A stretch of 64,000 nucleotides of DNA from assembly GCA_030681595.1 (NCBI GenBank), contig JAUXSB010000009.1:24265-88264 (forward strand), read 5' to 3'. The notes under the pieces are model-generated. The model searched no databases, was not told where the DNA came from, and worked only from the letters and a program-made list of their open reading frames with translations. Source of the DNA: Candidatus Omnitrophota bacterium (GTDB lineage Bacteria > Omnitrophota > Gorgyraeia > Ghiorseimicrobiales > Ghiorseimicrobiaceae). Shown here one piece after another: positions 8,110 to 35,843 of this stretch. The position numbers and the translations under genes were made by a program. Each line of letters begins with the position of its first letter. Positions within the stretch are counted from its first letter, which is position 1.

Positions 8110-9105
8110 ATGGGGATAAAATGGAAAGATTTTCAGATGCCGAAACGGTTAGAATGCGACGAGGCAACTTATACGCCTACTTACGGTAAATTTATTGCGG
8201 AGCCGTTTGAGCGTGGCTATGGTGTAACTTTGGGGAATTCTTTAAGGCGTGTGCTTCTTTCATCAATAGAAGGCAGCGCGGTTACTTCGGTTAAGATAGA
8301 GGGCGTATCGCATGAGTTTTCTACAATTAGCGGCGTATCAGAAGATGTAACCGATATAATCTTGAATATAAAGCAATTGGTTCTTCGCTCCTATGCCAAA
8401 ACTCCCAAGACAATTTATATAAAAGCAGATAAAAAAAGAGAGGTTAAGGCGGGGGATATTGTTACAGATGAAACTATCGAGATTCTTAACCCGGATTTAC
8501 ATATCGTTACCCTTACCGAAAATACAAAGTTTAACGTGGAAATGGAGGTTGGCCGCGGGCGTGGATATGTTACTTCCGAGGTGAATAAAAAAGACAGCCA
8601 GAGGATAGGGGTAATTGCTGTTGATTCGATATTTGCTCCGGTACGCAATGTGAATTTTTATGTAGAAAGCACACGTGTCGGGCAAAGGACAGATTACGAT
8701 AAGCTAATATTAGAGATAACTACCAACGGAAGCATTAGCCCTAAAGACGCGCTTCTTTATGCTTCGAATATATTACAGCGTCATTTAGATGTTTTTGTGA
8801 ATTTTGGGCAGCTTCCCGAAGAAGAAGAGGAGGAAGCCTTAAGTTCGGAAGAGCAAGCATTATATGAGAAACTCAAGCTTCCTATATCGGAACTTGAGCT
8901 TTCCGTGCGTAGCTCTAATTGCCTGAAAGAAACAAATATTAAGACCATTGGGGACTTAGTAAGAAGAACAGAGGCTGATTTATTGGGCTTGCGTAACTTC
9001 GGGAAAAAATCGCTTACGGAAATCAGTGAATTGATTGTTTCTTTAGGTTTAACCTTAGGGATGGACGTAGACTTAAAGAAAATAAAGAAAGAAAAACAAG
9101 GATAA
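8110..9105 (+). CDS. rpoA: DNA-directed RNA polymerase alpha subunit
   Basis: 331 aa with alpha NTD and CTD (…LSVRSSNCLK…). Position after rpsD. Confidence 0.92.
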   Translation: MGIKWKDFQMPKRLECDEATYTPTYGKFIAEPFERGYGVTLGNSLRRVLLSSIEGSAVTSVKIEGVSHEFSTISGVSEDVTDIILNIKQLVLRSYAKTPKTIYIKADKKREVKAGDIVTDETIEILNPDLHIVTLTENTKFNVEMEVGRGRGYVTSEVNKKDSQRIGVIAVDSIFAPVRNVNFYVESTRVGQRTDYDKLILEITTNGSISPKDALLYASNILQRHLDVFVNFGQLPEEEEEEALSSEEQALYEKLKLPISELELSVRSSNCLKETNIKTIGDLVRRTEADLLGLRNFGKKSLTEISELIVSLGLTLGMDVDLKKIKKEKQG

Positions 9106-9108
9106 AAA

Positions 9109-9771
9109 ATGCGCCATAAGGTAAACAAATCAAGGTTATCGCTTTCGAAAAGCCAAAGAAAGGCATTAATTAATGCCTTGGCTCGGTCAATGATCATAAA
9201 TGGCAGGATTAAAACTACCATACAAAGGGCAAAAAATGCTAAGCCTTTAGTCGAGCATCTTATTTCTTTGGGTAAAGAAGGCAGTCTTTATGCCAAGAGA
9301 AAGGCGTATAAGATATTACAGAATCATTTATTGGTTTCAAGGCTGTTTGGCGAGATTGCCCCTAAGTTTAAAGTCAGGCAGGGTGGTTACAGCCGTATTC
9401 TTCGTTTTGGCAGGCGCAGGGGCGATGGCACAGAAATGGCCCTGTTTGAATTGACCGAGGTTATCAAGGAAATAAAGCCGGAATCAGTTAAGAAGAAGAA
9501 GGAAAAAACCAAGGCTGCTGAGGCAAAGTCTCATGGCGAAGTATACCCCAAGGCGCAAGGATTAAAAGCAAAAGAAGCCGGCGTAGTTGCGTCTTCAGAG
9601 AAGCCAAAAGCGGCAGTCGAAGAAGAAAAGCGGCCTGCGGAAAAACCAAAATCTGCGCCTGAAGAGCAGAAGAAGCACAAGAATATAGAAATATATGATA
9701 AGAAGAGGGCGCATAAGAAATTTTTAGGCGGCTTAAGAAGCTTTTTCAAAAAAGAAAGAGATAGCCTCTAA
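9109..9771 (+). CDS. rplQ: 50S ribosomal protein L17, with a ~100 aa Lys/Ala/Glu-rich C-terminal extension
   Basis: An L17 core covers the first ~115 aa. It is followed by a low-complexity KKKKEKTKAAEAK…PEEQKKHK tail. Confidence 0.88.
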   Translation: MRHKVNKSRLSLSKSQRKALINALARSMIINGRIKTTIQRAKNAKPLVEHLISLGKEGSLYAKRKAYKILQNHLLVSRLFGEIAPKFKVRQGGYSRILRFGRRRGDGTEMALFELTEVIKEIKPESVKKKKEKTKAAEAKSHGEVYPKAQGLKAKEAGVVASSEKPKAAVEEEKRPAEKPKSAPEEQKKHKNIEIYDKKRAHKKFLGGLRSFFKKERDSL

Positions 9772-9851: not shown

Positions 9852-11021
9852 TTGATGAATAAGCTTGCTCAGCGTGTCAAGGATATAGAACCGTCTTCGA
9901 CACTTGCTATAACTGCCCGCGCAAAAAAAATGCGCCAAGAAGGTTTGGATGTAATTAGTTTTGCCGCAGGTGAGCCTGATTTTGACACTCCTCAATATAT
10001 CAAAGACGCCGCTATAAAGGCATTAGCGGAAGGTTTTACTAAGTATACCCCCTCAAGCGGTATCCCCGAATTAAAAAAGGCCATCCAGAAAAAATTTAAG
10101 CTTGATAATAGCCTAGATTATGAACCAGAGCAGATTATCGTTTCTTGCGGGGCAAAACACTCACTTTTTAATATAATTCAAGTTTTGGTAGATAAAAATG
10201 CTGAGGTGCTTATCCCATCGCCTTATTGGGTGAGTTATCTGGAAATGGTTAAGTTTGCCCAAGGCAAAGCTGTAATTCTTAAGACAGACAGTAGAAACTC
10301 TTTTAAGCTTAACGCCGAAATTTTAAGTAAAAACATCACAAAGAAAACCAAGCTGCTTATTTTAAATTCTCCTTCTAATCCTGCAGGCTGTGTATACAAG
10401 AGAGAAGAACTTGATGACATCGCGCAAATATGCGTAAAAAATAAGCTATGGGTGTTAAGCGACGAGATATATGAGAAACTTATTTATGAAAATAATAAGC
10501 ATATTTCTATCGCCACTTTAAATAATGACATATATAAGCTTACCTTTGTAGTAAATGGCGTCTCTAAGGCTTACTCAATGACCGGCTGGCGCATAGGATA
10601 TCTTGCCGGAGATAAAGAGGCAGTAGAGGCAACAGCGAGGCTGCAGGATCACTCTACTTCTAATCCTTGTTCCATATCGCAAAAAGCGGCTTTGGCAGCG
10701 TTGTCTTCCGACAATGGCTTTATTGATAAGATGCGCCTTGAATTTGAGGAAAGGCGTAACCTGATGCTTTCCGAGTTAGATAAAATAGGGTTGGATTATA
10801 TTAAACCAGAAGGTGCGTTTTACGTTTTTCTGGATATTTCAAAGGCTAAGATTGGTTCATGGGAGTTCTGCGATAAATTTTTGGCGGAAAAATATGTTGC
10901 CGTAATCCCGGGTGCGGCATTTGGAAATGATAATTATGTACGTTTTAGTTTCGCGGCCAGTATGCCGGAAATAAAAAAAGGTTTAGAGCGGCTAAGAGAA
11001 TTCATAAGCTCGCCCCGTTAG
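9852..11021 (+). CDS. PLP-dependent aminotransferase class I (aspartate or aromatic aminotransferase-like)
   Basis: 389 aa with the PLP-lysine context SKAYSMTGWRIGY. Typical AspAT fold-type I signature. Confidence 0.85.
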   Translation: MMNKLAQRVKDIEPSSTLAITARAKKMRQEGLDVISFAAGEPDFDTPQYIKDAAIKALAEGFTKYTPSSGIPELKKAIQKKFKLDNSLDYEPEQIIVSCGAKHSLFNIIQVLVDKNAEVLIPSPYWVSYLEMVKFAQGKAVILKTDSRNSFKLNAEILSKNITKKTKLLILNSPSNPAGCVYKREELDDIAQICVKNKLWVLSDEIYEKLIYENNKHISIATLNNDIYKLTFVVNGVSKAYSMTGWRIGYLAGDKEAVEATARLQDHSTSNPCSISQKAALAALSSDNGFIDKMRLEFEERRNLMLSELDKIGLDYIKPEGAFYVFLDISKAKIGSWEFCDKFLAEKYVAVIPGAAFGNDNYVRFSFAASMPEIKKGLERLREFISSPR

Positions 11022-11182
11022 AGACCAGTCCGACTTCGGCCTGCCCGAATGAAGTCAGGCGGGTCTGGCGGGTAGGCCATCATAGATGGCCGTCTATTGC
11101 GGGATAGGTAATAATAAACGAATGGCTTCCATAAATAAGCAGTAGTTTCAAGCAGCATAAAACGTATCTCTAACGGGGTAAA

Positions 11183-12439
11183 ATGGGTAAAACTATTGTT
11201 GAAAAAATTTTAAGCGCCCACTCCGGAAAAGATCTGAAGCCGGGAGATTTTGCTATATGTGATGTAGATTTTTGCTTTGGGCAAGATGGCACTTCCGCGA
11301 TTATCATTGACCGGATTAAAGCGCTGGGCGTAAAAAATCTCGCCAATAAAGATAAATTTTGCATGGTCATAGACCATAGTTCTCCCAGCCCGAATATGGG
11401 GGTTTCCGCTGTCCATAGTAAGATGCGTGCGTTTGCAAAAGAGTTCGGTTTAAAAGTCTATGATATCGGCTGTGGAGTTTGTCATGAGGTGGTCCCGGCA
11501 GAAGGCAATGTCCTGCCCGGGGATTTGGTTTTGGGGGCAGATTCGCATACCTGCACCTATGGCGCAATCGGCGCATTCTCTACCGGCGTCGGATCAACCG
11601 ATTTGGCAGTTGCTTTAGCCAGCGGTAAAAACTGGTTCCGTGTCCCTGAAACGATAAAGATAGAAGTAAATGGAAAATTGCCTAAAGGCGTTTATGCCAA
11701 AGATTTGATTCTTTACATCATCGGCGACTTGGGAGCAAATGGCGCTACTTATAGGGCGGTTGAGTTTTATGGAAGCGCAATAGATAATTTATCTCTTGAC
11801 GGGCGTTTTACAATGAGTAATATGGTAGTAGAAATGGGCGCAAAATGCGCCTTCTTTCCGGTGGATGAAAAAGTTCTAAGCTGGGTAAAAGAAAAGAGCA
11901 TAAAGAGAAAACCCATAATTTATAAAGCAGATTCTAGCGCCGAATATTGCCTGGTTAAGGAATATGATGCCGGAGACATTGCGCCACAGGTGGCAAGGCC
12001 GCATACTGTTGATAATGTAGTTGCGGTAAAAAAGATAGAAGGCCTTAAAATTAACGAAGCATTTTTAGGCACCTGCACCAACGGAAGGCTTGATGATTTG
12101 AAGGTGGCTTGGCGAATTTTAAAGGGAAGAAAAGTTAATCCGAAGATTAAATTCATTATCGCGCCAGCTTCACGCAGGATTTATTTGGAGGCATTAAAAT
12201 TAGGTTTTATAGAAACTTTTATAAAGGCGGAAGCGGTAGTGATTACTCCGGGATGCGGGCCGTGCGTGGGCACCCATATGGGTATTCCCGCAGATAAAGA
12301 AGTAGTGCTTTCAACGGCAAACAGGAATTTTAAGGGCAGGATGGGAAATCCTGAGTCGGAAATCTATCTTGCTTCTCCGGCTACTGTTTGCGCTTCAGCT
12401 GTTAGCGGCAAAATAACCGACCCACGGAAATATTTATAG
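11183..12439 (+). CDS. leuC: 3-isopropylmalate / citramalate dehydratase large subunit (aconitase family, archaeal-type LeuC)
   Basis: 418 aa. Has the aconitase cluster-ligand context (…GTCTNGR…, …PGCGPCVG…). Confidence 0.88.
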   Translation: MGKTIVEKILSAHSGKDLKPGDFAICDVDFCFGQDGTSAIIIDRIKALGVKNLANKDKFCMVIDHSSPSPNMGVSAVHSKMRAFAKEFGLKVYDIGCGVCHEVVPAEGNVLPGDLVLGADSHTCTYGAIGAFSTGVGSTDLAVALASGKNWFRVPETIKIEVNGKLPKGVYAKDLILYIIGDLGANGATYRAVEFYGSAIDNLSLDGRFTMSNMVVEMGAKCAFFPVDEKVLSWVKEKSIKRKPIIYKADSSAEYCLVKEYDAGDIAPQVARPHTVDNVVAVKKIEGLKINEAFLGTCTNGRLDDLKVAWRILKGRKVNPKIKFIIAPASRRIYLEALKLGFIETFIKAEAVVITPGCGPCVGTHMGIPADKEVVLSTANRNFKGRMGNPESEIYLASPATVCASAVSGKITDPRKYL

Positions 12440-12458
12440 CTATTATTAAGGAGGAATA

Positions 12459-13508
12459 ATGTTGGATTTAAGGACTTTGCTTATGGCGACCATAGAGAAA
12501 AAGGCTTCAGACTTGCATATTACCGATAACGCCCCTCCGATAATGCGCGTTTATGGAAAATTGATACATACGGAATTTCCCAAGTTAAACAAAGAAGATA
12601 CTAAAAAATTAATCTACAGTATGCTTAATGAGACACAAAAAGAAGCTTTTGAAAAAGATTTAGAACTGGATCTTTCGCTTGCGCTTCCCGGCCTTGACCG
12701 TTTCCGGGTAAATGTGCATATCCAGAGGGGTACTGTTGAGGCGGCGTTCCGCAGGATTCCCCTGATTATACCCACAGTTGAAGATCTAGGCCTGCCGCAA
12801 ATAGCGCTTGATTTGTCAAGAAAACCAAATGGCCTGGTTTTGGTGACCGGCCCCACAGGTGTAGGTAAGACGACAACGCTTGCGGCAATGGTGAATTTAA
12901 TTAATGCTGAACGGGAAAACATAATTATTTGTATTGAAGACCCGATAGAATTCTTGCATTACAACAAAAAAAGCATTATTAAGCAACGCGAAGTCTATTC
13001 TGATACTAAATCTTTTGCTGAGGCGTTACGGCATGCCCTTCGCCAGGATCCAAATGTTATTGTCGTCGGTGAAATGCGCGATTTAGAAACCATCGCGACA
13101 GCATTAACCGCCGCGGAAACCGGACATTTGGTTTTGGCTACTTTGCATACTCCGGATGCCCCACAGACGGTGCAAAGAATTATTGATGTTTTTCCTCCGC
13201 ACCAGCAGCAGCAGGTAAGGCTGCAACTATCCGACTGCTTGCAGGGTGTTGTATCACAGCTGCTCCTTCCCAGGGCTATCGGCGAGGGAAGAGTTTTGGC
13301 TACAGAAATAATGATCGGGACAAGCGGTATTAAGAACTTAATCCGTGAACAGGAGATAGAACAGATCCCTACCTTAATACAGACAGGCGCGCAATATGGC
13401 ATGAGGACGATGGATAAGTCTTTAAAGGAACTGTATAGGACGGGGATTATTTCTTATGAAACAGCGCTGGCTAGGGTTAAAAATCCTCAGGATTTCAGGA
13501 ATCTTTAA
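12459..13508 (+). CDS. pilT: type IV pilus retraction ATPase PilT
   Basis: 349 aa. Walker A GPTGVGKTTT, Asp box, Walker B and His box, with an N-terminal PilT N domain. Confidence 0.88.
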   Translation: MLDLRTLLMATIEKKASDLHITDNAPPIMRVYGKLIHTEFPKLNKEDTKKLIYSMLNETQKEAFEKDLELDLSLALPGLDRFRVNVHIQRGTVEAAFRRIPLIIPTVEDLGLPQIALDLSRKPNGLVLVTGPTGVGKTTTLAAMVNLINAERENIIICIEDPIEFLHYNKKSIIKQREVYSDTKSFAEALRHALRQDPNVIVVGEMRDLETIATALTAAETGHLVLATLHTPDAPQTVQRIIDVFPPHQQQQVRLQLSDCLQGVVSQLLLPRAIGEGRVLATEIMIGTSGIKNLIREQEIEQIPTLIQTGAQYGMRTMDKSLKELYRTGIISYETALARVKNPQDFRNL

Positions 13509-13522
13509 CGGGGCTATCCGTA

Positions 13523-14029
13523 ATGAATATTAAAGTTAAGGGTACTGCAATAAAGCTAGGCAGCGATATAAATACCGACTTGATTATTTCCGGAAGGTAT
13601 AAATTTTCCATAACCGATATGAAAGAGCTTTCTAGGCATATCTTTGAAGATTTGGATAAAGACTTTGCCGGAAAGATCAAGCCTAATGAGTCTATCATTA
13701 CCGCGGGGGAGAATTTTGGCATGGGCTCATCCCGAGAGCAGGCGCCGTTAGCGATAAAAGAAGCTGGGATATTAGCTGTGGTAGCCAAAAGCTTTGCCCG
13801 CATATTTTACCGAAATGCTTTTAATATCGGCTTATTGCTTATTGAAGCAGATACCGATAAAATATCTGAAAATGACAAGATAGATATAGATTTGGATAAG
13901 GGCATACTTAAGAATGAAACCAAGGGTTCTCTTATAGAAATTAAGCCTATGCCGAATGTGCTTAAGGCCTTATTTCTAGACGGCGGCTTAGTAAATCACT
14001 TCAAAAAGCATCAGGGATTAGAATTATAG
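13523..14029 (+). CDS. leuD: 3-isopropylmalate / citramalate dehydratase small subunit
   Basis: 168 aa aconitase swivel domain (…GENFGMGSSREQAP…). Confidence 0.88.
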   Translation: MNIKVKGTAIKLGSDINTDLIISGRYKFSITDMKELSRHIFEDLDKDFAGKIKPNESIITAGENFGMGSSREQAPLAIKEAGILAVVAKSFARIFYRNAFNIGLLLIEADTDKISENDKIDIDLDKGILKNETKGSLIEIKPMPNVLKALFLDGGLVNHFKKHQGLEL

Positions 14030-14032: not shown

Positions 14033-14061
14033 GGCCTTTTTAAAAAAAGGCCATTTTTTTA
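14033..14061 (+). terminator. rho-independent terminator after leuD
   Basis: ggccttttt-aa-aaaaaggcc stem, followed by attttttt. Confidence 0.6.
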
Positions 14062-14067
14062 TTTCTA

Positions 14068-17036: not shown

Positions 17037-17340
17037 ATAATAGGCACATTGGCTGAGACGATTTGGTTTTGGCTATATTGAAAGCCAAACCACTGCTTTC
17101 TAGCTTTGTTGGAGCGAGACAAGGAACGAGGACGCCGGCGTAGTCGCAGTACTACGCCAAAGACGAGTGACGCAGGCGCAGCCCAAAAGCGGCCAGCCCC
17201 TTCGGGGAAGGCGCATCTTTGGCCTGCTACCGCGTTGCTCCTCCTCGAAGTAGTGCATAGACTACATCTTCGTCGTCGCGCCTTGCATCAGGCTCAAATC
17301 TTCGCCTTCCGATGTACCCATTATTTATCGGAGGCTCAGT
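17021..17340. mobile_element. MITE-like 320-bp insert bounded by perfect 20-bp terminal inverted repeats, between bioH and bioC
   Basis: 17021-17040 (actgagcctccgataaataa) is the exact reverse complement of 17321-17340. The interior is GC-rich, unlike the flanks, and contains a cccc-ttcg-gggg hairpin. The left TIR supplies the bioH stop codon. The interior shares an identical 25-mer with the hisS 3' end (50128-50152). The ORF 17106..17342 inside it is probably spurious. Confidence 0.5.
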
Positions 17341-17353
17341 GAAAGGTTTAGCG

Positions 17354-20342: not shown

Positions 20343-22409
20343 ATGGTTTTTGGGCATATTATTGTGAAGAAAAATAACAAAAAAATAGATAAGCAATTAT
20401 CTTTGTGTTTGCGGCATTCCGCGAGTAAAAATGTGGCTTTGCCTGACGAAGAAAGCCTGAAGGATAATGCGCAGCTTTACCGTAGCCTTATTGAGACATC
20501 GCCGGATGCCATTATGCTTATTGATAAAGACTTAAAAATCATTATGGTCAATAAGCAGGCTGTCAGATTACACGGTTTTGATAATATGCAGGAATTAATC
20601 GGCAAAAGCGCCTTAGATATTATAGCAGCCAATGACAGGAGGCGCGCCATAGGCAATGCTTTTAAAATTACTAAATATGGGACAAGGAAAAATATAGTAT
20701 ATACTTTTCTTAGGAAAGACGGTTCTTATTTTTTTGGCGAGTTAAATGTATCGGTAGTCAGGGATAAATTGAAGATGAACAATGTTTTTATCGGGATAGT
20801 CAGGGATATTACCGAACATAGAAAAGCGGATGAGGTGTTAAAGTTGTCCGAAGAGCGTTACCGGGCTACTCTTGATTCTATGGCAGATGGTATACATGTA
20901 GTTGATTCGAGTATGCGCATCATTTTGTTTAATCAGGCGTTTATAAATTTAAACAAGAATTTAAAGTTGGGTTGTAGAGCGATAGGAAAAAATTTATTTG
21001 ACGTATTCCCTTTTCTATCGGATAAAGCGCGCAACGAATACAAAAAAGTATTTAAGACAGGAAAGACTGTAATTACTTCTGAATGCCATATGGCTAAAGG
21101 CAGGGAAATTAACCTGGAAGTAAGAAAAATCCCTATTTTAGAACAGGGCATAGCGGCAAGAGTCCTGACAGTTATTGTGGATGTCAGCCAACGCAAGTTC
21201 CTGGAAAAGGAATTTGAGAAGGTTCATAGAGAGATCTTAGAGTCAAATATGAAATTAAAAGAGTTGGCCATGCTGGATTCCCATACCGGCCTTTATAATC
21301 ATCGTTATTTGGAAGATATCCTTGAGAAAGAATTTTTGAGGGCAAAGCGTTGTAAATACCATATTTCGCTAATTATGTTAGATATAGACTATTTTAAATC
21401 TATAAATGATGTTTACGGGCATCAATTCGGTGATTTGGTATTAAGGCAGTTCGCTACGCAGATTAGGAAGGTGGTACGTAAATATGACATCGTTACCAGA
21501 TTCGGCGGGGAGGAATTTGTGATTGTATCGCCGGGAACGAACACTCAAACAGCTTTATCCTTGGCAGGCAGGATTTCAAGCAATATAAATCTTTGCAATT
21601 TCGGAGACAAGAGTCACCATGTTAAGATAAAGTTAAGCATGTCCATAGTTTCTTATCCGGAAAACGATGCGGCGACCGGCATGGGTTTGCTTAATGTTGC
21701 CGATAAAGTATTGAATAGGGTTAAAGAAGAAGGCGGCGACAGGATTTATGCTTATTCGGATATTTCAAAACAGGGGCAAATTGATAACGCAACGCGCGGA
21801 GAAGATATAGATGTTGAAGTCATAAAAGATAAGATGGATAAACTTACGAAGCGCGTCAACCAGAGTTTAGTGGAGGCAATCTTTGCTTTTGCTAAAACAA
21901 TTGAATTAAAAGACCACTATACCGGCGAGCATGTGGAGCGTACTGTTGAATATGCCACAGGGCTTTGCCGCGCCCTTAATCTTTCTAAAGAGGAGACAAA
22001 TATTATTAAGCAGGCGGCCATACTGCATGATTTAGGAAAAATCGGCATAAGCGATAAAATTTTACTTAAGAAATCCAAGCTTACTAAAAAGGAATTTGAG
22101 GAAATCAAGAAACACCCGCAGATTGCCGCGGATATAATTCGTCCCGTTCAATTCCTGCATAATATAGTCCCCCTGGTCCTTTATCACCATGAGCGATGGG
22201 ACGGCAAAGGTTACCCTAGCGGCTTAAAGGGCGAGCAGATCCCTATAGGGGCGCGCATAATTTCTATCGCGGACGCATACCAGGCGTTAATCTCCGATCG
22301 TGCTTACCGTAAGGCATACCCTAAGAAAGAGGCAATAAAAATACTTCGGGAAGAATCCGGCACAAGATATGATCCGGCAATTCTGGATATGTTTTTGAAC
22401 GTCACATAA
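20343..22409 (+). CDS. PAS/PAC-PAS-GGDEF-HD-GYP protein (bifunctional c-di-GMP cyclase/phosphodiesterase)
   Basis: Two PAS regions, GGDEF variant GGEEF (RFGGEEFVIV), and a C-terminal HD-GYP (HD…HHERWDGKGYP). The N-terminal ~45 aa is uncertain because the start codon lies inside a hairpin. Confidence 0.85.
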   Translation: MVFGHIIVKKNNKKIDKQLSLCLRHSASKNVALPDEESLKDNAQLYRSLIETSPDAIMLIDKDLKIIMVNKQAVRLHGFDNMQELIGKSALDIIAANDRRRAIGNAFKITKYGTRKNIVYTFLRKDGSYFFGELNVSVVRDKLKMNNVFIGIVRDITEHRKADEVLKLSEERYRATLDSMADGIHVVDSSMRIILFNQAFINLNKNLKLGCRAIGKNLFDVFPFLSDKARNEYKKVFKTGKTVITSECHMAKGREINLEVRKIPILEQGIAARVLTVIVDVSQRKFLEKEFEKVHREILESNMKLKELAMLDSHTGLYNHRYLEDILEKEFLRAKRCKYHISLIMLDIDYFKSINDVYGHQFGDLVLRQFATQIRKVVRKYDIVTRFGGEEFVIVSPGTNTQTALSLAGRISSNINLCNFGDKSHHVKIKLSMSIVSYPENDAATGMGLLNVADKVLNRVKEEGGDRIYAYSDISKQGQIDNATRGEDIDVEVIKDKMDKLTKRVNQSLVEAIFAFAKTIELKDHYTGEHVERTVEYATGLCRALNLSKEETNIIKQAAILHDLGKIGISDKILLKKSKLTKKEFEEIKKHPQIAADIIRPVQFLHNIVPLVLYHHERWDGKGYPSGLKGEQIPIGARIISIADAYQALISDRAYRKAYPKKEAIKILREESGTRYDPAILDMFLNVT

Positions 22410-22545: not shown

Positions 22546-22968
22546 ATGGATTCTATCGAAAATGGGCACAGGGGTATAGAACGAAGGCGGTTTGTCCGCC
22601 TGCCTTACAGGTCGCCGCTTAAATACAAAATCTGTAAAGAAGACACGATAAAAAAACTAATGTCCGGCTATACCGAGAATATCAGCCAGTCTGGCCTGCT
22701 CTGTAATATTAATGACCAGGTGCCTCTAGACTGTGTATTGTGGCTTGCTTTGGACATGGGGATTTTAAGCATTTGCTCCGAGATAGAGAGGAATAGTGTT
22801 ATCCTGCAGCATGGCATACTCGGCCGGGTGATAAGGACTTATCAGAAAAAAAACGGCAGTTTCGATGTGGGCGTGCGTTTTCTTACGCGGAGCGAAACAG
22901 ATACCGGCAGCCTTTTCCAGAAGGCTTACGTAGATGAGGCGATGTTAGGAGATAATGCGGATAGATAA
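22546..22968 (+). CDS. PilZ-domain c-di-GMP receptor (single domain)
   Basis: RRRFVRL (RxxxR) and NISQSGLL (D/NxSxxG) motifs. Confidence 0.75.
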   Translation: MDSIENGHRGIERRRFVRLPYRSPLKYKICKEDTIKKLMSGYTENISQSGLLCNINDQVPLDCVLWLALDMGILSICSEIERNSVILQHGILGRVIRTYQKKNGSFDVGVRFLTRSETDTGSLFQKAYVDEAMLGDNADR

Positions 22969-24135: not shown

Positions 24136-24495
24136 ATGTGGGAAGAAGATTCGGAAGAGAAGCGCAAGGCTCCTCGAATAAAAAAACAGCTTGTCATTCA
24201 ATATAGTTTTAAGCGCGGGATAGACCAGCCTGAAGTTTGGGATGAGTCTGTGATAAATGATATAAGCGAGACAGGTGCTAGTTTTAACGTCGGTAAGCAG
24301 TTTAGGCGTGACGAAATCTTTGTTATATACCTGTATTCTCCGGTAAATCCCGCAGATAAAATAGAGATTAAGGTAAAAGTGATAGATTCGGCTGCGTCCA
24401 GTATAGGCATACATAGAACAAGAGTGGAATTCGTTGGTCTCTTAGAGGAGCAAAAAATCCTGCTTAGGGAGTGTATCGCACAATTTTTGAAATAA
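24136..24495 (+). CDS. PilZ-domain protein (single domain, 119 aa)
   Basis: KRKAPRI and NDISETGASF motifs. Confidence 0.7.
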   Translation: MWEEDSEEKRKAPRIKKQLVIQYSFKRGIDQPEVWDESVINDISETGASFNVGKQFRRDEIFVIYLYSPVNPADKIEIKVKVIDSAASSIGIHRTRVEFVGLLEEQKILLRECIAQFLK

Positions 24496-24513: not shown

Positions 24514-24879
24514 ATGGCTTACAACGGAAAAGAAAGACGAAAGTACACCCGCATTAGTAGAACCTTTATAGTCTCTTACAGGATTTTAAAAGAAGTCGAT
24601 AATTACGACTTAACGCAAACTAAGAATATTAGTACCGGAGGAATGCTTCTTACGACAAACAGGCTTTTTGGCCCGGGCACGCTTTTAGCCATAGATATAA
24701 GGCTGCCTTTCTTGATTGAGCCTTTGAATTTAAAAGGACAGGTCATTGATTCCAGGGAAGTGGTAAAAAATTTGATCTATGATACCCATCTGGAGCTTAT
24801 CGATGCCGATGAGGAAACCAAAGAAGTGATTAATAAGACGGTAGTTTATCACCTTAAGAAGGCCGGAGAACAGAAATGA
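24514..24879 (+). CDS. PilZ-domain protein (single domain, 121 aa)
   Basis: ERRKYTRI and KNISTGGMLL motifs. Tandem paralogue of the previous ORF. Confidence 0.72.
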   Translation: MAYNGKERRKYTRISRTFIVSYRILKEVDNYDLTQTKNISTGGMLLTTNRLFGPGTLLAIDIRLPFLIEPLNLKGQVIDSREVVKNLIYDTHLELIDADEETKEVINKTVVYHLKKAGEQK

Positions 24880-27994: not shown

Positions 27995-28046
27995 ACCCCG
28001 CCCTTCCTAAAAAGAGCGGGGGATCCGAGAAAGGAAGAGCGGGGTG
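27995..28046 (+). promoter_or_regulatory. repeated leader element copy 2, embedding the SD and GTG start of apgM
   Basis: accccgcccttcct…agagcggggg…gaaaggaagagcggggtGa. The block agagcgggg occurs twice, so ccccgccc has two alternative pairing partners. Confidence 0.5.
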
Positions 28047-29237
28047 AAATACATTGTTTTAGTCCCGGATGGCATGGCGGATTACCCGGTTGAGGACTTG
28101 GGTGGCAAGACTCCTCTCGAGGCCGCAAAAACACCTAATTTAGATTTTGTGGTAAAAGAAGGTTTGCTGGGCCGGGTAAAAACTGTCCCTTTGGGGCTTC
28201 CGCCGGCATCGGATGTGGCAAATTTATCTATTTTTGGTTACGACCCGCAGAAATATTATACCGGAAGAGGGCCGTTTGAAGCGGCGAATTTAGGCATAGC
28301 GCTTGAGCCGGGCGACATCGCTTTTAGGTGTAATCTAATCACCGCGGAAGAAGATGTGCTTACTGATTATAGCGCCGGACATATTTCTACAAAAGAAGCC
28401 GTAGCGTTGATGAGGCTTATTAACGAAAAGTTAGGCAGTGAAAATATTTTGTTTTATCCGGGTATGAGCTACCGCCATATTATGATAGCAAAAGGGGGAG
28501 TCAATAAAAAACTAGATAAAATAAGGTGTGTCCCGCCGCATGATATTATCGGAGAAAAGGTATCCAAGAACCTGCCTTGCGGTGAGAATGCGGAAATTTT
28601 GATTAAGCTGATGCAGGCATCAAGAGAAATATTGTCCAGCCACGAGGTAAATAATGTGCGCATCGACCTAAAGGAAAATCCTGCGAATATGATCTGGCTC
28701 TGGGGCCAGGGGGTAAAACCGGATATGCCGAAGTTTAGCGAAAAGTTCGGAATTTCAGGCTCGGTAATTTCAGCGGTAGATTTAATTAAGGGTATTGGCA
28801 GGATTGCTGGGCTTGAAGTTATTGATGTCCCCGGCGCCACCGGCTATTATGATACGGATTACTTTGGCAAGGCCAAATACGCGCTTAAATCTTTAGACAC
28901 AAAGGATTTTGTCTATGTGCATATTGAGGCTCCCGATGAGGCAGGGCATAATGGCGACCTAAGAGAAAAGATTGCCGCGATAGAAAGATTTGATCAGTTG
29001 GTGGTTGGGACTATCTTAGATGTTTTAAAAGAGAAAGAGGATTTCCGCTTGCTTATACTGCCAGACCATGCTACGCCTTTATCTAAGCGTACGCATACGC
29101 CAGACGATGTAGGTTTTGTGATTTATGGCTCTGGTATTGTTTCTAACGGCTATTCTGTATTTACTGAGGAGGAGGCAAAGAAAAGCAGCCTGTATATTAC
29201 AGAAGGGCATAAATTGATGGAATACTTTATAAGATAA
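28044..29237 (+). CDS. apgM: 2,3-bisphosphoglycerate-independent phosphoglycerate mutase, archaeal-type (ApgM)
   Basis: 397 aa alkaline-phosphatase superfamily. The N-terminus LVPDGMADYP is typical of ApgM. Confidence 0.85.
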   Translation: MKYIVLVPDGMADYPVEDLGGKTPLEAAKTPNLDFVVKEGLLGRVKTVPLGLPPASDVANLSIFGYDPQKYYTGRGPFEAANLGIALEPGDIAFRCNLITAEEDVLTDYSAGHISTKEAVALMRLINEKLGSENILFYPGMSYRHIMIAKGGVNKKLDKIRCVPPHDIIGEKVSKNLPCGENAEILIKLMQASREILSSHEVNNVRIDLKENPANMIWLWGQGVKPDMPKFSEKFGISGSVISAVDLIKGIGRIAGLEVIDVPGATGYYDTDYFGKAKYALKSLDTKDFVYVHIEAPDEAGHNGDLREKIAAIERFDQLVVGTILDVLKEKEDFRLLILPDHATPLSKRTHTPDDVGFVIYGSGIVSNGYSVFTEEEAKKSSLYITEGHKLMEYFIR

Positions 29238-29287: not shown

Positions 29288-30532
29288 ATGAAAAAACGTC
29301 TGATTGTGCAGAAATATGGCGGTTCTTCCGTAGCCAATCCCGAGCGGATTAAAAAAGTTGCCGAGAGAGTGGTTAAATACAGAAAAAAAGGTAAAAATTT
29401 AGTCGTGGTAGTTTCGGCTTTAGGCGATACAACCGACGAACTTATACAATTGGCCGCGCAAATTACAACTTCTCCTTCAGAACGCGAGATGGATATGCTT
29501 TTAGCTACCGGGGAGCAGGTTTCAAGTGCTCTCTTGGCGATGGCAATACAAAAATTGGGTTTTAGCGCTATTTCTCTTACCGGGCCGCAAGTCGGTATCG
29601 TTACCGATACCGCCCATACGAAAGCGCGTATCGTAAAAATCGGCGCTGAGCGCATACGGCAGGAACTTAAGAAGGGTAGGATTGTAATTGTCGCCGGTTT
29701 TCAGGGGATGACTGAGGCGCAGGATATTACTACACTTGGCCGCGGCGGATCAGATTTAACCGCCGTAGCTTTAGCAAAGGCGTTGGACGCCGATGAGTGC
29801 GAGATTTATACTGATGTTTCAGGAATTTATACAACGGATCCGCGTATTGAGGCAAGCGCGCATAAACTTAATTGTATTACATACGATGAAATGCTGGAAA
29901 TGGCCTCTCTTGGCGCCCAGGTGATGCAGGCGCGTTCAATTGAGGTGGCCAAGAAATTCAATATTCCTTTACATGTGCGTTCAAGCTTTAATTACGAGCG
30001 CGGGACGATGATTTGCAATGTTTGTAAGCTTAATAAAGAGGAGGCAAAAGCAATGGAAGACGTCCTAATCAGCGGAGTTACTTTAAATAAGAATGAAGCA
30101 AAGTTTACTTTGTGTGATGTGCCGGATAAGCCGGGTATCGCGGCGGTGCTTTTTGAAGAATTGTCTGATGCTGAAATAAACGTGGACATGATCGTGCAGA
30201 ATGTTTCGCGCACAAAACAAACTGATATTTCTTTTACGGTGCCGAAGAATAACTTGAATAAAGCGTTACGGATTACGCGCAGGGTTTCAAAATCAGTAGG
30301 CGCAGGATCCGTAATCGCCGATAGCGATGTGGCGCGTGTTTCTATTGTCGGGGTAGGCATGAAGACTCATCCGGGGGTTGCCGCAAAGATGTTTGAGGCG
30401 CTGGCAGAGAATAAAATTAATATTGAGATGATTTCGACAAGCGAAATTAGTATTTCCTGTTTGATAAAGAAAAGCGCTGGCGAGCCGGCTGTGCGCGCGC
30501 TGCATAGTAAGTTTAATTTGGGAAAGAAATGA
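29288..30532 (+). CDS. lysC: aspartate kinase (monofunctional, two ACT domains)
   Basis: 414 aa amino-acid kinase fold with tandem ACT domains. Confidence 0.9.
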
Positions 30533-32100
30533 CTATGATTAAGAAAGTACAACTTTACGATACAACCTTGCGCGACGGCGCGCAATCCGAAGGGATTTCT
30601 TATTCTGTTACCGATAAAATTTTGATTGCCCGTAAGCTTGATGGGCTGGGGATTGACTACATTGAAGGCGGCTGGCCGGCTAATGTAAAGGACGAACAGT
30701 TTTTTAAGAAACTGAAAAAAAGAAATCATTTTAAGCATGCCAAATTAACGGCTTTTGCCGCGACTAGGCGCGTGGATGTTTCAGTGGAGAAGGATAAAAG
30801 CCTATGCGCTGTTTTAAAGGCCCAAACCCCCGTGGTAACGATATTCGGCAAGACTTGGGATTTGCACGTAAGGGATGTATTGAGAGTATCACTTGATGAG
30901 AACCTTAAGATTATAACAGAGACGGTTGAATTTTTACGTAAACACGATAAAGAAGTTATCTATGATGCCGAGCATTTTTTTGACGCTTACAAGGCAAATC
31001 CGGAATACGCGCTAAAGACTATCGTCGCAGCTCAGGATGCGGGGGCCGCCAATATTACCTTCTGTGATACTAATGGCGGAACTTTGACTTGCGATCTGAT
31101 AAAAATTATTTCCGGGTTAAAGTCAAAATTAAAGATTCCCTTTGGAATACACACGCATAATGATTTAGATCTGGCGGTAGCGAATTCTATTGCCGCTGTT
31201 GAATTAGGGGCAAGTTTAGTGCAGGGGACATTTAACGGCTATGGCGAGCGCTGCGGTAATGCCAATCTTAGCACTATTATCGGGATATTAAAAACGAAGA
31301 TGTTTATAGATTGTATATCTAACGAGCAGTTAAAAGAGCTTACAAAGGCAGCGTATTTTGTCAGTGAAATAAGTAATGTGAGGCCGGCAGAGAATCAGCC
31401 GTTTGTGGGAAGGTCTGCTTTTGCGCATAAAGGCGGAGTGCATATCAACGCGATAATGAAAAATCCGGACAGTTACGAGCATATAAAGCCGGAATTAGTC
31501 GGAAATCATCGCCGTTTATTGGTCTCGGAACTTGCCGGAAAAACCCCGATTCTTATCAAGGCAAAAGAATTGAAGTTAGATTTAGACAAGAAATCGCCGC
31601 AGGCAAAGAAAGTCTTGGAGTTACTGCAAAAGTTAGAGCATCAAGGGTATCAGTTTGAGGCGGCAGAAGCCTCTTTTGAAATATTGGTGAAAAAGGCGCT
31701 TAAGAAATACAAAAACTTTTTTGTTTTGGAGAGTTTCCGGGTAATCATTGAGAAAAGAAGAAACGGCAAAATTACTTCCGAGGCGACTATAAAGCTAAAG
31801 GTAAATAACGTCGAGGAACATACCTCTGCCGAAGGCGACGGCCCGGTAAACGCGCTTGACAACGCTTTACGTAAAGCGCTTCGCGATTTTTATCCTCAGC
31901 TTTCAAAGATGCGTTTGTCCGATTTTAAAGTGCGCGTTTTGGACGCGAAGACAGGCACCGCCGCTAAAGTGCGCGTATTAATTGAGTCCGAAGACGAAAA
32001 AGATACTTGGGGTACCGTCGGTGTATCTGAAAATATTATTGAAGCAAGCTGGCAGGCGTTAGTTGACAGCGTCGAATATAAATTATTAAAGGACAAGTAA
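30529..32100 (+). CDS. LeuA-family synthase, citramalate synthase (CimA)-like or 2-isopropylmalate synthase
   Basis: 523 aa DRE-TIM barrel ([14 protein letters not shown]) plus a LeuA-dimer regulatory domain. The length and N-terminus resemble CimA. Function inferred. Confidence 0.8.
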
Positions 32101-32132: not shown

Positions 32133-34940
32133 ATGAACGAAATTCCCTCCCGATATAACCCCAAAGAAGTTGAAGAGAAATGGTATAAGTTTTGGGAAGA
32201 AAATAAGCTATTTTCCGCAAAGCCCACTCCTAATAAGAAACCTTTCTGTATAGTCATACCTCCGCCTAATGTGACCGGAATTTTACACATGGGGCATGCC
32301 TTGAATAATTTCATACAGGATATTTTAACCCGTTACCAGCGAATGAAAGGTAGTGAGGCGCTCTGGATACCTGGGACAGACCATGCCGGGATTGCCACGC
32401 AGAACGTGGTGGAGAAGAAATTGGCTAAAGAAGGTAAAAAACGGCAGGACTTAGGGCGCGATGAATTTTTAAAGGAAGTCTGGAAATGGCGCGAGGAATA
32501 CGGTTCAACTATTATCAAGCAGCTTAAGAAATTAGGCGCATCCTGTGATTGGGAGCGTACTCGTTTTACTATGGATGAGGGCTACAGTGATGCAGTGCTG
32601 GAAGTATTTATTCATTTATATAATAAAGGCCTCATTTATCGGGGAAAGCGTATTATTAATTGGTGCCCGCGTTGTTCAACCGCGCTTAGCGATGAAGAAG
32701 CTCCTTATAAGGAATTGGAAGGGCAGCTTTATTATATACGGTATCCAATTAAAGTCACCAGTCATACCCTTGCGGGCACAGGCCAGTCATACCCTTGCGG
32801 GCACAGGCCAGTCACCAGAAAAAAACAGAAAACTATCAATTACGTAGTAGTGGCGACGACGCGGCCGGAGACGATGTTGGGCGATACGGCGGTAGCGGTT
32901 AATCCCAAAGACAAGCGCTATAAAGACCTGATAGGAAAGACTGTTATTCTTCCTTTGGTTGAGCGGGAAATTAAAATTATCGCTGATAATTTTGTTGATC
33001 CGAAATTCGGTACAGGCGCGGTTAAGGTTACCCCTGCCCATGATCCTAACGATTACCAGATGGGGCTGCGGCATAATCTAGAGTTTATTAATATTATGCA
33101 GGTCGATGGTGTGTTGAATTCTAATGCCGGCGAATACGATGGTATGGATAGGTTTGAGGCACGCCAGGCAATAGTTAACGATTTAAAAGAGCGTAAGCTG
33201 CTGGAGAAAATAGAACCGCATATGCATTCCGTAGGGCATTGCTATCGTTGTTCAACCGTAATTGAGCCATATTTGTCCAACCAGTGGTTTGTGAAAATGA
33301 AGCCTTTATCCAAACTCGCGTTGGAAGCGGTGAAAAAAGGCGAAATTAAATTTTATCCTAAGCGTTGGACAAAGGTTTATTTAAACTGGATGGAAAATAT
33401 TCAGGATTGGTGTATCTCGCGGCAGATTTGGTGGGGGCATAGGATGCCTGTTTATTATTGTAAAAATTGCTACAAGCCTCAAGCTTCAGGCTCCAAGCTT
33501 CAAACTGAAAAAGAAAAGCCTGCAGCAGATAAGGGTATCTTTGTTTCAAAGAATAAGCCGGAGAAATGCCCGGATTGCGGCTCAAGCGATATTTATCAAG
33601 ACGAAGATGTGTTGGATACTTGGTTTTCTTCCTGGCTCTGGCCGTTTGCGACGTTTGGCTGGCCGTTTACAAGCTACAAGCCTCAAGCTGCAAGCGACAA
33701 GCAAAAAAGCCTGCAGCAGGACGAACTTAATTACTTCTACCCTACTTCGGTATTAGTGACTGCTCAGGAAATAATCTTTTTCTGGGTGGCGCGCATGATT
33801 ATGGCGGGCTTTGAATTTATGGGTAAAAAGCCGTTTTCCGATGTTTATATCCATGGTACGGTGCGCGACGATACCGGTAAAAAGATGTCTAAGTCTCTGG
33901 GTAATATTATTGACCCGCTTGAAATTATAAATGAGTTTGGATCAGACGCGCTTCGTTTCAGTATTATTTCCCTGACCAGCGTAGGCCAGGATGTCTTTTT
34001 ATCTAGGAATAAATTTGAATACGGCAGGAATTTCGCCAATAAAGTCTGGAATGCCTCGCGCTATACCATAATGAACCTTAAGCCAGAAGAAATAAATGTG
34101 GATTTGTGCGCCTATTCTAAAGGTATATCCGGGCTTGCCGAGAAGTGGATTTTAAGCCGGTTTTACAGCGCTTTAGATAGAATAGAGAAGGCGCTTAAGC
34201 AGTATAAAATTAACGAGGCGGCTAAGGTAATGTATGAATTTTTCTGGCATAATTTCTGTGATTGGTACCTGGAATTTTCTAAGTTAACATTGGGGAGGCG
34301 CCAAACGCAGGTTGTGCTTTATAAGGTATTGGAAAAATCCCTGCGTGTTATGCATCCGTTCTTGCCGCATCTGACCGAAGAAATATGGCATAACCTGCCG
34401 GGTACAAAATCGTCCATAATGACGGAAAGCTGGCCGCATTTGCAGAAACAGTTTATCTCAAAAACAACGGATAAACAGATGCAGGTTTTGATAGATTTAA
34501 TTTCCCTGATAAGGAATATCCGTTCTGAATGGCACATATTGGAACACGCTGAAATAGAATGTATTATTAAGACTACAGATAAGGCTTCAAAAAAACTCAT
34601 ACAGGAAAACGATATTTATCTAAAAAAATTAGCAAAGCTAGGCCAGATAAAAATCGTAGAGAAAGCCGAAGATGTTTCCATGTGCGCATCCGGCGTGGCA
34701 GGAAAACTCGATTTTTATATACCACTTGAAAAACTTATTGATTTGACAAAAGAAAAAGAGCGCCTGTCTAAACAAATACAGTCATTTGAGGCGCAGTTTA
34801 AGGCTTTGAGAGAAAGATTAAAGAATAAGGAATTTCTTAAAAAAGCGCCCAACGAAGTGGTGGAAAAAGAAAAAATCAGGTTAGAAGAGTTATCGAAATT
34901 AATCAAGCGTATTGGCGATAATTTAAAAGTATTGGGTTAA
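32133..34940 (+). CDS. valS: valine--tRNA ligase, carrying in-frame repeat insertions
   Basis: 935 aa. HIGH (PPNVTGILHMGHA), KMSKS, editing domain, and a C-terminal coiled coil. Confidence 0.93.
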   Translation: MNEIPSRYNPKEVEEKWYKFWEENKLFSAKPTPNKKPFCIVIPPPNVTGILHMGHALNNFIQDILTRYQRMKGSEALWIPGTDHAGIATQNVVEKKLAKEGKKRQDLGRDEFLKEVWKWREEYGSTIIKQLKKLGASCDWERTRFTMDEGYSDAVLEVFIHLYNKGLIYRGKRIINWCPRCSTALSDEEAPYKELEGQLYYIRYPIKVTSHTLAGTGQSYPCGHRPVTRKKQKTINYVVVATTRPETMLGDTAVAVNPKDKRYKDLIGKTVILPLVEREIKIIADNFVDPKFGTGAVKVTPAHDPNDYQMGLRHNLEFINIMQVDGVLNSNAGEYDGMDRFEARQAIVNDLKERKLLEKIEPHMHSVGHCYRCSTVIEPYLSNQWFVKMKPLSKLALEAVKKGEIKFYPKRWTKVYLNWMENIQDWCISRQIWWGHRMPVYYCKNCYKPQASGSKLQTEKEKPAADKGIFVSKNKPEKCPDCGSSDIYQDEDVLDTWFSSWLWPFATFGWPFTSYKPQAASDKQKSLQQDELNYFYPTSVLVTAQEIIFFWVARMIMAGFEFMGKKPFSDVYIHGTVRDDTGKKMSKSLGNIIDPLEIINEFGSDALRFSIISLTSVGQDVFLSRNKFEYGRNFANKVWNASRYTIMNLKPEEINVDLCAYSKGISGLAEKWILSRFYSALDRIEKALKQYKINEAAKVMYEFFWHNFCDWYLEFSKLTLGRRQTQVVLYKVLEKSLRVMHPFLPHLTEEIWHNLPGTKSSIMTESWPHLQKQFISKTTDKQMQVLIDLISLIRNIRSEWHILEHAEIECIIKTTDKASKKLIQENDIYLKKLAKLGQIKIVEKAEDVSMCASGVAGKLDFYIPLEKLIDLTKEKERLSKQIQSFEAQFKALRERLKNKEFLKKAPNEVVEKEKIRLEELSKLIKRIGDNLKVLG
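32755..32818 (+). repeat. in-frame repeat insertion A: 25-bp unit tcatacccttgcgggcacaggccag in tandem x2, flanked by tcaccag direct repeats
   Basis: Read directly. The two copies are translated in different frames (SHTLAGTGQ, then SYPCGHRPV). Net insert 57 bp. The same unit recurs in nadC. Confidence 0.85.
33468..33533 (+). repeat. in-frame repeat insertion B copy 1 (heptamer-based: five NNCAAGC units plus aaaagcctgcagcag)
   Basis: ctacaagcctcaagct…aagcctgcagcag recurs 200 bp downstream. It sits between the two Cys pairs of the valS zinc knuckle. Confidence 0.7.
33668..33725 (+). repeat. in-frame repeat insertion B copy 2
   Basis: acaagc tacaagc ctcaagc tgcaagc gacaagc aaaaaagcctgcagcagg. 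The 3' block is read in a different frame from copy 1. Confidence 0.7.
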
Positions 34941-34943: not shown

Positions 34944-35843
34944 ATGCAGAAAAAAGAAATTATCAATATCGTAAAAAATGCCCTTAGGGAAGATGCCGCG
35001 GATAGAGATATTACTACGCAGGCGCTTATTCCTCTGGATTTAAGGGCAGCGGCAAGGATTATTACCAAAGAAAATGGGGTAGTTTGCGGATTAAGCATTG
35101 CGGAACTCGCCTTTAAGCTGTTGGATAAAAATATCAAGTTTAAGGCAAAAGTCAAAGATGGTGCGGTAATAAAAAATGGTAGTTGTTTGGCAGAGATTTA
35201 CGGTAGGGCACGGCCAATTTTATCTGCAGAACGTACCGCACTCAATTTCTTAGGGAATCTTTGTGGAATAGCCGCGTTTACCCGTCAATTCGTAGAAAAA
35301 GTTAAACCGTATAAAACTAAGATTCTGGATACCAGAAAAACTACGCCGAATTTAAGAATACTGGAAAAATACGCGGTGCGTTGCGGCGGCGGGTTCAACT
35401 ACCGTTTTGATTTAAGCGAACAAATATTGGTTAAAGATAACCACATAAGAATCACAAATGACAAATTACAAATGGCAAATTTAAAATATGTCGTTGAGGC
35501 CGTACGAAAAAACGTGAAGGGTAAAAAAATTGAGATTGAGGTAGATAATTTAAGGCAGTTCAAAGAAGTAATTGCTGTGGCGCCCGATATTATCATGCTG
35601 GATAATTTTAATCTGTCTGATATCAAAAAAGCGGTAAAGATTAAAAATCGGTCACCAGTCATACCCTTGCGGGCACAGGCCAGCCACCGGTCGCCGGTAA
35701 AACTAGAAGCATCTGGTGGAATAACTTTAAGAAATATTAAGAAAGTTGCTGCAACCGGCGTAGATTTTATCTCTATCGGCGCGCTCACCCATTCAGTTAA
35801 ATCCTTGGATTTATCTTTAGAAATCACTAAAAAATCTGCGTAA
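34944..35843 (+). CDS. nadC: nicotinate-nucleotide pyrophosphorylase (carboxylating), carrying an in-frame repeat insertion
   Basis: 299 aa QPRTase. The usual C-terminal …LEASGGI motif is interrupted by the insert. Confidence 0.88.
   Translation: MQKKEIINIVKNALREDAADRDITTQALIPLDLRAAARIITKENGVVCGLSIAELAFKLLDKNIKFKAKVKDGAVIKNGSCLAEIYGRARPILSAERTALNFLGNLCGIAAFTRQFVEKVKPYKTKILDTRKTTPNLRILEKYAVRCGGGFNYRFDLSEQILVKDNHIRITNDKLQMANLKYVVEAVRKNVKGKKIEIEVDNLRQFKEVIAVAPDIIMLDNFNLSDIKKAVKIKNRSPVIPLRAQASHRSPVKLEASGGITLRNIKKVAATGVDFISIGALTHSVKSLDLSLEITKKSA
35651..35690 (+). repeat. in-frame insertion of repeat A (single 25-bp unit, flanks tcaccag / ccaccgg) in nadC
   Basis: Identical 25-mer to the valS copies, translated in the third possible frame (VIPLRAQAS). 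Net ~39 bp. Confidence 0.85.

Follow-up and report, generated by a model that had tools for sequence, protein, structure and literature searches.

Why does the gene for a pilus retraction ATPase, pilT, lie between the genes for the two subunits of a metabolic enzyme, leuC and leuD? The question arises from a stretch of 64 kb from a Candidatus Omnitrophota bacterium (contig JAUXSB010000009.1, positions 24,265 to 88,264; the whole stretch is called the window here), in which an original prediction, made from the sequence alone, had placed a complete pilT between LeuC- and LeuD-type genes. Open reading frame (ORF) calls and family models reproduced this description and its coordinates exactly (Table 1). 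We are fairly confident that the gene is an ordinary type-4a retraction ATPase gene that was inserted once into the leuCD operon, became entrenched there, and serves pili encoded elsewhere in the genome. This answer builds on four sets of observations: the identities of the genes, the conservation of their order, the anatomy of the junctions, and the independent loss of either partner.

As judged from its sequence, the inserted gene is an orthodox PilT-clade retraction ATPase. Its product scored 468.6 bits against TIGR01420, the PilT/PilU family model (cutoff, 319.1 bits), which places it in the family, and residues 4 to 345 cover positions 2 to 343 of the 343 in the model. The catalytic motifs, which had been described as intact, were all found: Walker A (GPTGVGKTT, residues 131 to 139), the Asp box (EDPIEF, 160 to 165), Walker B with the catalytic Glu (NVIVVGEMRD, 199 to 208), and the His box (TGHLVLATLHT, 221 to 231). 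The AIRNLIRE-type motif is also present, as GIKNLIRE in the window protein and [GA][IV]RNLIRE in the phylum. The core residues of the catalytic motifs are invariant among 42 Omnitrophota PilT orthologues, and a 100% identical sequence is annotated as PilT in a Candidatus Omnitrophota metagenome-assembled genome at NCBI.

Comparison with solved structures groups the protein with PilT and not with PilU. It scored 393 bits against Geobacter sulfurreducens PilT (5zfq), 377 bits against G. metallireducens PilT4 (6ojx), 360 bits against Aquifex aeolicus PilT (2ewv/2gsz), and 346 bits against Pseudomonas aeruginosa PilT (3jvu/3jvv); these proteins have the same length and the same motifs, and the alignments run over residues 3 to 347. 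PilU (9n32) belongs to the same TIGR01420 family and fold class and is often encoded away from assembly genes, but its score was clearly lower (264 bits), and the window protein retains the AIRNLIRE-type motif, which separates PilT from PilU. An identity as PilU was therefore rejected. Matches to PilB/GspE were limited to the ATPase core (∼95 to 107 bits); the window protein, at 349 amino acids, lacks the long N-terminal domains of those ATPases. Two things set it apart from the characterized PilT proteins: its gene belongs to a metabolic operon and has no pilus gene as a near neighbor, and its Walker A motif carries a lineage signature (window positions 12849 to 12875), GPTG[V/M]GKTT in Omnitrophota versus GPTGSGKST in other phyla, where Ser occupies position 5 in 31 of 40 and position 8 in 37 of 40 sampled PilT sequences. 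An ordinary pilT calls for no new mechanism; the novelty lies in the order of the genes, an old synteny quirk.

The leuC-pilT-leuD order is an inherited trait of a large part of the Omnitrophota that we have not found described before; the searchable literature on Omnitrophota pilT, or on pilT together with leuC and leuD, yielded no account of it. For the synteny comparison suggested along with the original prediction, we took one genome for each GTDB species and sampled 80 loci that encode PilT relatives; 38 of these were from Omnitrophota. RpoA, RplQ, AspC, LeuC, PilT, and LeuD were mapped onto these loci by tblastn, and other neighbors were labeled with Pfam. The order is shared by 28 of the 38 Omnitrophota loci, nearly always after rpoA-rplQ-aspC. 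Another locus has pilT-leuD on a contig that is too short upstream, one has pilT-leuD behind an unrelated gene, five have aspC-pilT at the same site with leuC and leuD absent, and three carry tandem PilT paralogues in a different context. The 28 loci include those of two closed genomes, Velamenicoccus archaeovorus LiM (NZ_CP019384; L034 in our sample) and CP070837 (L037), and a 1.57-Mb contig (L049), and the order was also found in independent assemblies and in JGI metagenome contigs (L092 and L095). Named carriers, assigned by the taxonomy that Seymour et al. 2023 (PMC10066038) tabulate, belong to the orders Velamenicoccales, Ghiorseimicrobiales, Gygaellales, and Duberdicusellales of the class Velamenicoccia and to the class Gorgyraia. 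Pairwise PilT identity within the Omnitrophota set falls to 59%. The closest named relative, Ghiorseimicrobium undicola (Velamenicoccia, Ghiorseimicrobiales), has a PilT that is 84% identical and, like the window, a bio operon after leuD.

Some contigs deposited under other titles ('uncultured Planctomycetales bacterium,' 'Deltaproteobacteria bacterium MAG210,' or simply 'bacterium') have the Omnitrophota order together with Omnitrophota-like PilT, LeuC, and RpoA (L009, L011, L015, L017, L022, L023, and L029). The gene order is a clean synteny signature and could be used to flag such mislabeled Omnitrophota contigs quickly.

Outside the Omnitrophota, the PilT relatives of Sumerlaeota (the sister group in the PilT tree), Actinomycetota, Firmicutes, and other phyla never adjoin leuC or leuD. 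The 7-kb flanks of pilT in those phyla contain a second T2SSE-family ATPase at 34 of 42 loci and a prepilin-like ORF at 20 of 42, versus 3 of 45 and 0 of 45, respectively, for Omnitrophota pilT. When metagenomes were sampled with LeuD as the query, leuC and leuD were directly adjacent at 39 loci of more distant relatives from other phyla. A neighbor-joining tree of concatenated LeuC and LeuD (200 bootstraps) joined all leuC-pilT-leuD loci and one locus without pilT (L094) in a single clade with 100% bootstrap support, and the plain leuC-leuD pairs of other lineages all fell outside this Omnitrophota clade. The simplest history would be a single move of pilT from a pilus cluster to a site between leuC and leuD in an early Omnitrophota ancestor.

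Either partner has since been lost while the other stayed. At five loci (L029, L031, L035, L036, and L038), pilT comes 15 to 69 nt after aspC and is itself followed by an Iso_dh-family gene or by lipB; leuC and leuD have left no trace at these loci. In the PilT tree the five form one clade nested among leuC-pilT-leuD lineages, a placement which indicates that leuC and leuD were both deleted while pilT stayed. The converse is seen in L094 and probably L100, which have aspC-leuC-leuD-Iso_dh-mdh with pilT absent and 3 nt between leuC and leuD. The LeuD of L094 carries the Omnitrophota-specific loop described below, and monophyly of the leuC-pilT-leuD clade to the exclusion of L094 received 0% support. 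L094 is thus nested within that clade, so pilT would have been secondarily lost or moved there. Three further loci (L043, L091, and L093) have pilT-leuD behind unrelated genes, and L091 and L093 continue with Iso_dh and mdh; to judge by these neighbors, the break fell between leuC and pilT. In every lineage that keeps both, pilT and leuD are still adjacent, which fits the stop/start overlap of these genes. Because pilT and leuCD each survive without the other, a specific PilT-LeuCD partnership is not needed.

By their layout, leuC, pilT, and leuD resemble a single operon. In the window they share the + strand, and 19 nt separate leuC from pilT and 14 nt separate pilT from leuD. In the 35 loci compared, leuC and pilT lie a median of 19 nt apart, and pilT is nearly everywhere preceded by a strong AAGGAGG-type Shine-Dalgarno sequence; for pilT and leuD the median distance is -4 nt. 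The pilT TGA and the leuD ATG overlap as ATGA in 16 of 31 non-redundant loci. Because of this shared ATGA, translation of leuD in these lineages would be mechanically tied to that of pilT and not to that of the partner subunit, leuC. A consensus scan of the window found no terminator-like site in either the leuC-pilT or the pilT-leuD gap, and the only intergenic sense-strand terminator-like hairpin starts 4 nt after the leuD stop; this hairpin likely marks where the leuC-pilT-leuD transcript ends in this genome. The original prediction had expression of a motility or secretion ATPase coupled to branched-chain amino acid biosynthesis, and the anatomy (short gaps, a strong Shine-Dalgarno sequence, ATGA overlaps in relatives, and a hairpin after leuD) speaks for the coupling of expression. 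Rfam at gathering thresholds gave no match over the whole window and thus no leader, riboswitch, or T-box; the fold of the GC-rich, 161-nt aspC-leuC spacer was not significant (z = -1.24), and relatives have no such spacer, most of their gaps measuring between -4 and 40 nt. A promoter-like scan was uninformative (15 sites versus 13.1 expected). The supplements of PMC12583861 contain no mention of PilT, pili, or isopropylmalate dehydratase.

A retraction ATPase needs a pilus to act on, and none is encoded close by. The absence of other pilus genes from the window, noted at the outset, held as far as it was tested: tblastn found no second T2SSE-family ATPase in the window, a six-frame scan found no prepilin motif of the G-F-T-L-I-E type, and the Pfam matches of the otherwise unassigned window ORFs were all unrelated to pili. 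The ∼6 kb upstream of the window start, read from the overlapping contig L087, hold only ribosomal protein genes, and the ∼7 kb past the right end (L088) hold no gene with a pilus-related Pfam match. Elsewhere in genomes of this phylum such genes are common. Type-4a pilus genes were reported in 135 of 141 Velamenicoccia, 38 of 40 Gorgyraia, 19 of 23 Omnitrophia, and 11 of 13 Aquiviventia genomes (Seymour et al. 2023, PMC10066038). According to the same study, V. archaeovorus LiM has a type-4a pilus cluster beside a non-respiratory F-type ATPase and expresses type-4a pili, and the KEGG Orthology (KO) tables for representative genomes list pilB, pilC, pilD, and pilM alongside pilT. It also linked type-4a pili to epibiotic or predatory lifestyles in Omnitrophota. 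The pilT of V. archaeovorus LiM has the same leuC and leuD flanks as that of the window.

The window also encodes a PAS-PAS-GGDEF-HD-GYP protein (20343-22409) and three small PilZ-domain proteins (22546-22968, 24136-24495, and 24514-24879). These genes lie 7 to 12 kb downstream of pilT, and cyclic-di-GMP components of this kind often control type-4 pili.

Taken in sequence, the following events would account for the locus. In an ancestor of much of the Omnitrophota, pilT would have left its pilus cluster and been inserted between leuC and leuD of a housekeeping operon, aspC-leuC-leuD (mostly with an Iso_dh-like gene and mdh), directly after rpoA-rplQ. It would since have been carried as an operon member with its own strong ribosome-binding site, and in about half of the lineages the overlap of the leuD start with the pilT stop (ATGA) would have entrenched the arrangement. 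Such entrenchment, strong selection on pilT, and the stable gene order beside the ribosomal operons may together have kept it in place, and the protein most likely serves, presumably in retraction, type-4a pili whose genes lie at another place in the genome. The original prediction had left a choice between a lineage-specific operon rearrangement and the use of a PilT-like ATPase outside a pilus locus. The former stands, as a single old insertion; the latter does not fit an orthodox PilT in a phylum with type-4a pili encoded elsewhere (PMC10066038). The prediction also allowed that a conserved, long-standing order with a complete pilus system elsewhere would be merely a synteny quirk, and because the synteny results and the type-4a clusters in the literature describe just this, a departure beyond such a quirk was not borne out.

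Three other explanations were weighed. The persistence of the order down to 59% PilT identity, over several orders and two classes, with pilT wired in by short gaps and ATGA overlaps, could reflect adaptive co-regulation, in which the amount of the retraction motor is tied to a metabolic operon after rpoA so that attachment, predation, or twitching tracks growth and nutrients. The placement of the operon downstream of, and co-directional with, the highly expressed ribosomal/rpoA genes, and the association of type-4a pili with epibiotic or predatory lifestyles in the phylum (PMC10066038), would suit this. Nevertheless, we regard it as unlikely because either partner can be lost independently; where the enzyme genes are gone, pilT simply remains behind aspC. 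The lack of any Rfam leader, riboswitch, or T-box in the window and the insignificant spacer fold likewise give it no help. In its stronger form, that the insertion is functional wiring and not a frozen accident, the proposal is speculative and rather improbable; were it true, the retraction motor and a central metabolic enzyme would rise and fall together, and attachment or predation would be linked to nutrition in ultra-small bacteria. A new role for the ATPase, in partnership with the LeuCD-type enzyme, the Fe-S cluster of that enzyme, or some other envelope machine, could be read from the tight, conserved order with a metabolic enzyme, the lineage-specific Walker A motif, and the lack of pilus genes in the window and of prepilin-like ORFs in the 7-kb flanks of all 45 loci. 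We think this very unlikely. The PilT model is matched along the whole protein, which falls in the PilT clade, and the phylum keeps the PilT-specific AIRNLIRE motif as [GA][IV]RNLIRE; pilT persists where leuC and leuD are gone; and pilT is unlinked from pilBCD in well-studied bacteria such as Pseudomonas aeruginosa as well. Moreover, the near-universal type-4a clusters in the same classes need a retraction ATPase (PMC10066038). Finally, the window comes from a metagenome-assembled genome, and a misassembled or chimeric contig might have placed pilT between leuC and leuD. The chance of this is negligible, and misassembly was rejected, since the same order recurs in over 30 assemblies made independently in different studies, closed chromosomes included, and the G+C content is even over the leuC-pilT-leuD region.

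Several points weigh against a single old insertion of a gene that serves distant pili. Pilus assembly genes were not seen in the readable sequence, that is, the 64-kb window and ∼13 kb of overlapping contigs, and three Omnitrophota loci (L039 to L041) carry their tandem PilT paralogues in another context. The breadth of the trait covers lineages of GTDB class Koll11 and deeper unnamed branches, with no locus assigned to Omnitrophia or Aquiviventia. The trees are neighbor-joining trees, the PilT tree carries no bootstrap support, and the exact position of L094 is supported at 44 to 63%. Co-transcription of leuC, pilT, and leuD, like the translational coupling of leuD to pilT, is deduced from sequence features. 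So deep a persistence of a gene between the subunits of one enzyme is unusual, and selection for co-expression could be involved. The reading as an ordinary, entrenched pilT still offers a well-sampled natural case in which an inserted gene is entrenched through a stop/start overlap yet can be lost from either side. It also points to a retraction ATPase that would be expressed from a housekeeping operon beside rpoA and not from a pilus locus, in a pilus-dependent and possibly predatory phylum.

The enzyme that flanks pilT proved harder to name. The large subunit passed the subfamily models NF001614 (561 bits; cutoff, 385), TIGR01343 (545 bits; 385.7), and TIGR02086 (537 bits; 410.15), and the small subunit passed TIGR02087 (173.5 bits; 108.95). 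The LeuC equivalog models TIGR02083 (LEU2; 494 bits versus a cutoff of 610.65) and TIGR00170 (228 bits versus 560.25) and the LeuD equivalog models TIGR02084 (163 bits versus 245.85) and TIGR00171 (58.9 bits versus 116.25) were missed, and so were those for methanogen homoaconitase: HacA_Meth (447 bits versus 550), HacB2 (167 bits versus 230), and HacB (151 bits versus 230). The small subunit aligned end to end with two Methanocaldococcus jannaschii proteins, the isomerase subunit 3vba (131 bits) and HacB 2pkp (141 bits), and the pair is the same archaeal-type two-subunit enzyme of the aconitase superfamily. It differs from the M. jannaschii enzymes in its loop, in the splitting of the subunit genes by pilT, and in the Iso_dh-like gene and mdh that follow in relatives. 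The loop, GRYKFSI in the window (13580-13600; residues 20 to 26) and invariant as GRYKF[S/A]I across the Omnitrophota orthologues (L001 to L043), is one residue longer than, and matches neither, the isomerase loop RYLVYT (3vba) nor the homoaconitase loop PYLRTT (2pkp); the Arg-Thr of the homoaconitase YLRT type is absent from it. An Iso_dh-family gene and then a malate dehydrogenase gene come after leuD in most relatives. The Iso_dh-family product scored 378 bits as isocitrate dehydrogenase versus 192 bits as LeuB, under every cutoff, and its gene is retained in the clade that lost leuC and leuD. Because the scores reach only subfamily level, and in view of the loop and the neighbors, we call the enzyme a LeuCD-type two-subunit hydro-lyase.

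The original prediction had assigned this LeuCD to the citramalate route to isoleucine. In support, the window encodes a citramalate synthase, CimA, at equivalog level (TIGR00977; 752.8 bits versus a cutoff of 450; no more than 309 bits against the LeuA models, of which the best has a cutoff of 517), and cimA sits with hom, thrC, and an aspartate kinase gene. It is the one window gene that argues for an isopropylmalate/citramalate isomerase role of the flanking enzyme. The citramalate pathway (CimA, LeuCD, and LeuB) requires a LeuCD-type isomerase, and the LeuCD-type pair may be used in it; set against this pathway, the window has CimA, no LeuB or ilv gene, and an aminotransferase of the AspC type. 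That aminotransferase had been cited in favor of the isoleucine route; we reject it as support for the route, as it is an AspC-type class I/II enzyme and not of the IlvE type; its top NCBIfam match was aspartate aminotransferase NF041091 (443.6 bits, under the cutoff of 550). The assignment thus gained from CimA and lost from the aminotransferase, the missed equivalogs, and the unmatched loop. In the part of the KofamScan-based literature tables that was covered, orthologues of the pair are listed as K01703/K01704, and the KOs of canonical acnA/acnB are absent among the rows covered of the published representative-genome KO tables. On these sequence comparisons, the pair in this genome is probably an isopropylmalate/citramalate isomerase. 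The unique loop and the isocitrate dehydrogenase-like and mdh neighbors suggest a second possibility, that the 'LeuCD' pair might act as the aconitase of this lineage. For enzymes annotated as LeuCD in Omnitrophota, the annotation does not settle the substrate.

The surroundings of the cluster are as follows. The window has 63 confidently called ORFs, all on the + strand except one tiny ORF, and opens in the ribosomal spc/alpha operons (secY, adk, map, infA, rpsM, rpsK, rpsD, rpoA, and rplQ). In nearly every Omnitrophota locus, leuC comes immediately after aspC, and the two frequently share 4 nt. In the window, a biotin operon (bioB, bioF, a bioH-like gene, bioC, bioD, and bioA) follows leuD.

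Table 1. Features of the window that bear on the leuC-pilT-leuD cluster
Feature	Position	Strand	Basis and remarks
rpoA	8110-9105	+	ORF; end of the ribosomal alpha operon
rplQ	9109-9771	+	ORF; with rpoA, conserved anchor upstream of the cluster
AspC-type class I/II aminotransferase	9852-11021	+	PF00155, 261 bits; first gene of the conserved metabolic cluster
LeuC/HacA-family large subunit (archaeal-type, aconitase superfamily)	11183-12439	+	418 amino acids; PF00330, 325.8 bits
Shine-Dalgarno sequence AAGGAGG	12448-12454	+	Read from the sequence; 4 nt before the pilT ATG
pilT	12459-13508	+	349 amino acids; TIGR01420; PilT-clade type-4a pilus retraction ATPase, motifs intact
LeuD/HacB-family small subunit (archaeal-type), partner of 11183-12439	13523-14029	+	168 amino acids; TIGR02087
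Terminator-like hairpin GGCCTTTTTAAAAAAAGGCC followed by a T-run	14033-14062 (hairpin, 14033-14052)	+	Consensus scan only
cimA, citramalate synthase	30529-32100	+	TIGR00977 equivalog

Near cimA, an apgM-type gene (28044-29237) lies between thrC/coaB and the aspartate kinase-cimA pair. Its product passed two models, one for cofactor-independent phosphoglycerate mutase (570 bits; cutoff, 426) and one, TIGR02535, for a 'proposed homoserine kinase' (550 bits; cutoff, 446), and the position would fit a role as a non-canonical homoserine kinase.

Islands of at least 68% G+C, in a genome of 42% G+C, occur in four intergenic spacers: between aspC and leuC (11008-11078), between the bioH-like gene and bioC (17161-17228), before 38362 (38260-38322), and before 57441 (57162-57229). 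They may form a family of hairpin-forming elements. The G+C-rich stretch at 17106-17342 yields a spurious Arg/Pro-rich ORF.

The genes valS and nadC, which are unrelated housekeeping genes, share a GC-rich and in part palindromic sequence of 36 nt, GTCACCAGTCATACCCTTGCGGGCACAGGCCAGTCA, with two tandem copies in valS (32754-32814) and a single copy in nadC (35651-35686). Its frame differs between valS and nadC, and both ORFs stay open. ValS is ∼200 residues longer than its Pfam core and includes a Cys-rich insert flanked by a second repeat (33469-33512 and 33673-33702). The GTCACCAGTCATACCCTTGCGGGCACAGGCCAGTCA copies resemble the small in-frame repeat elements that genes tolerate in, for example, Rickettsia.

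YbbR repeats are normally part of a separate regulator, CdaR. Toward the right end of the window (61999-63435), the diadenylate cyclase CdaA, with a transmembrane N terminus and a DAC domain, is fused to YbbR repeats in one protein of 478 amino acids.

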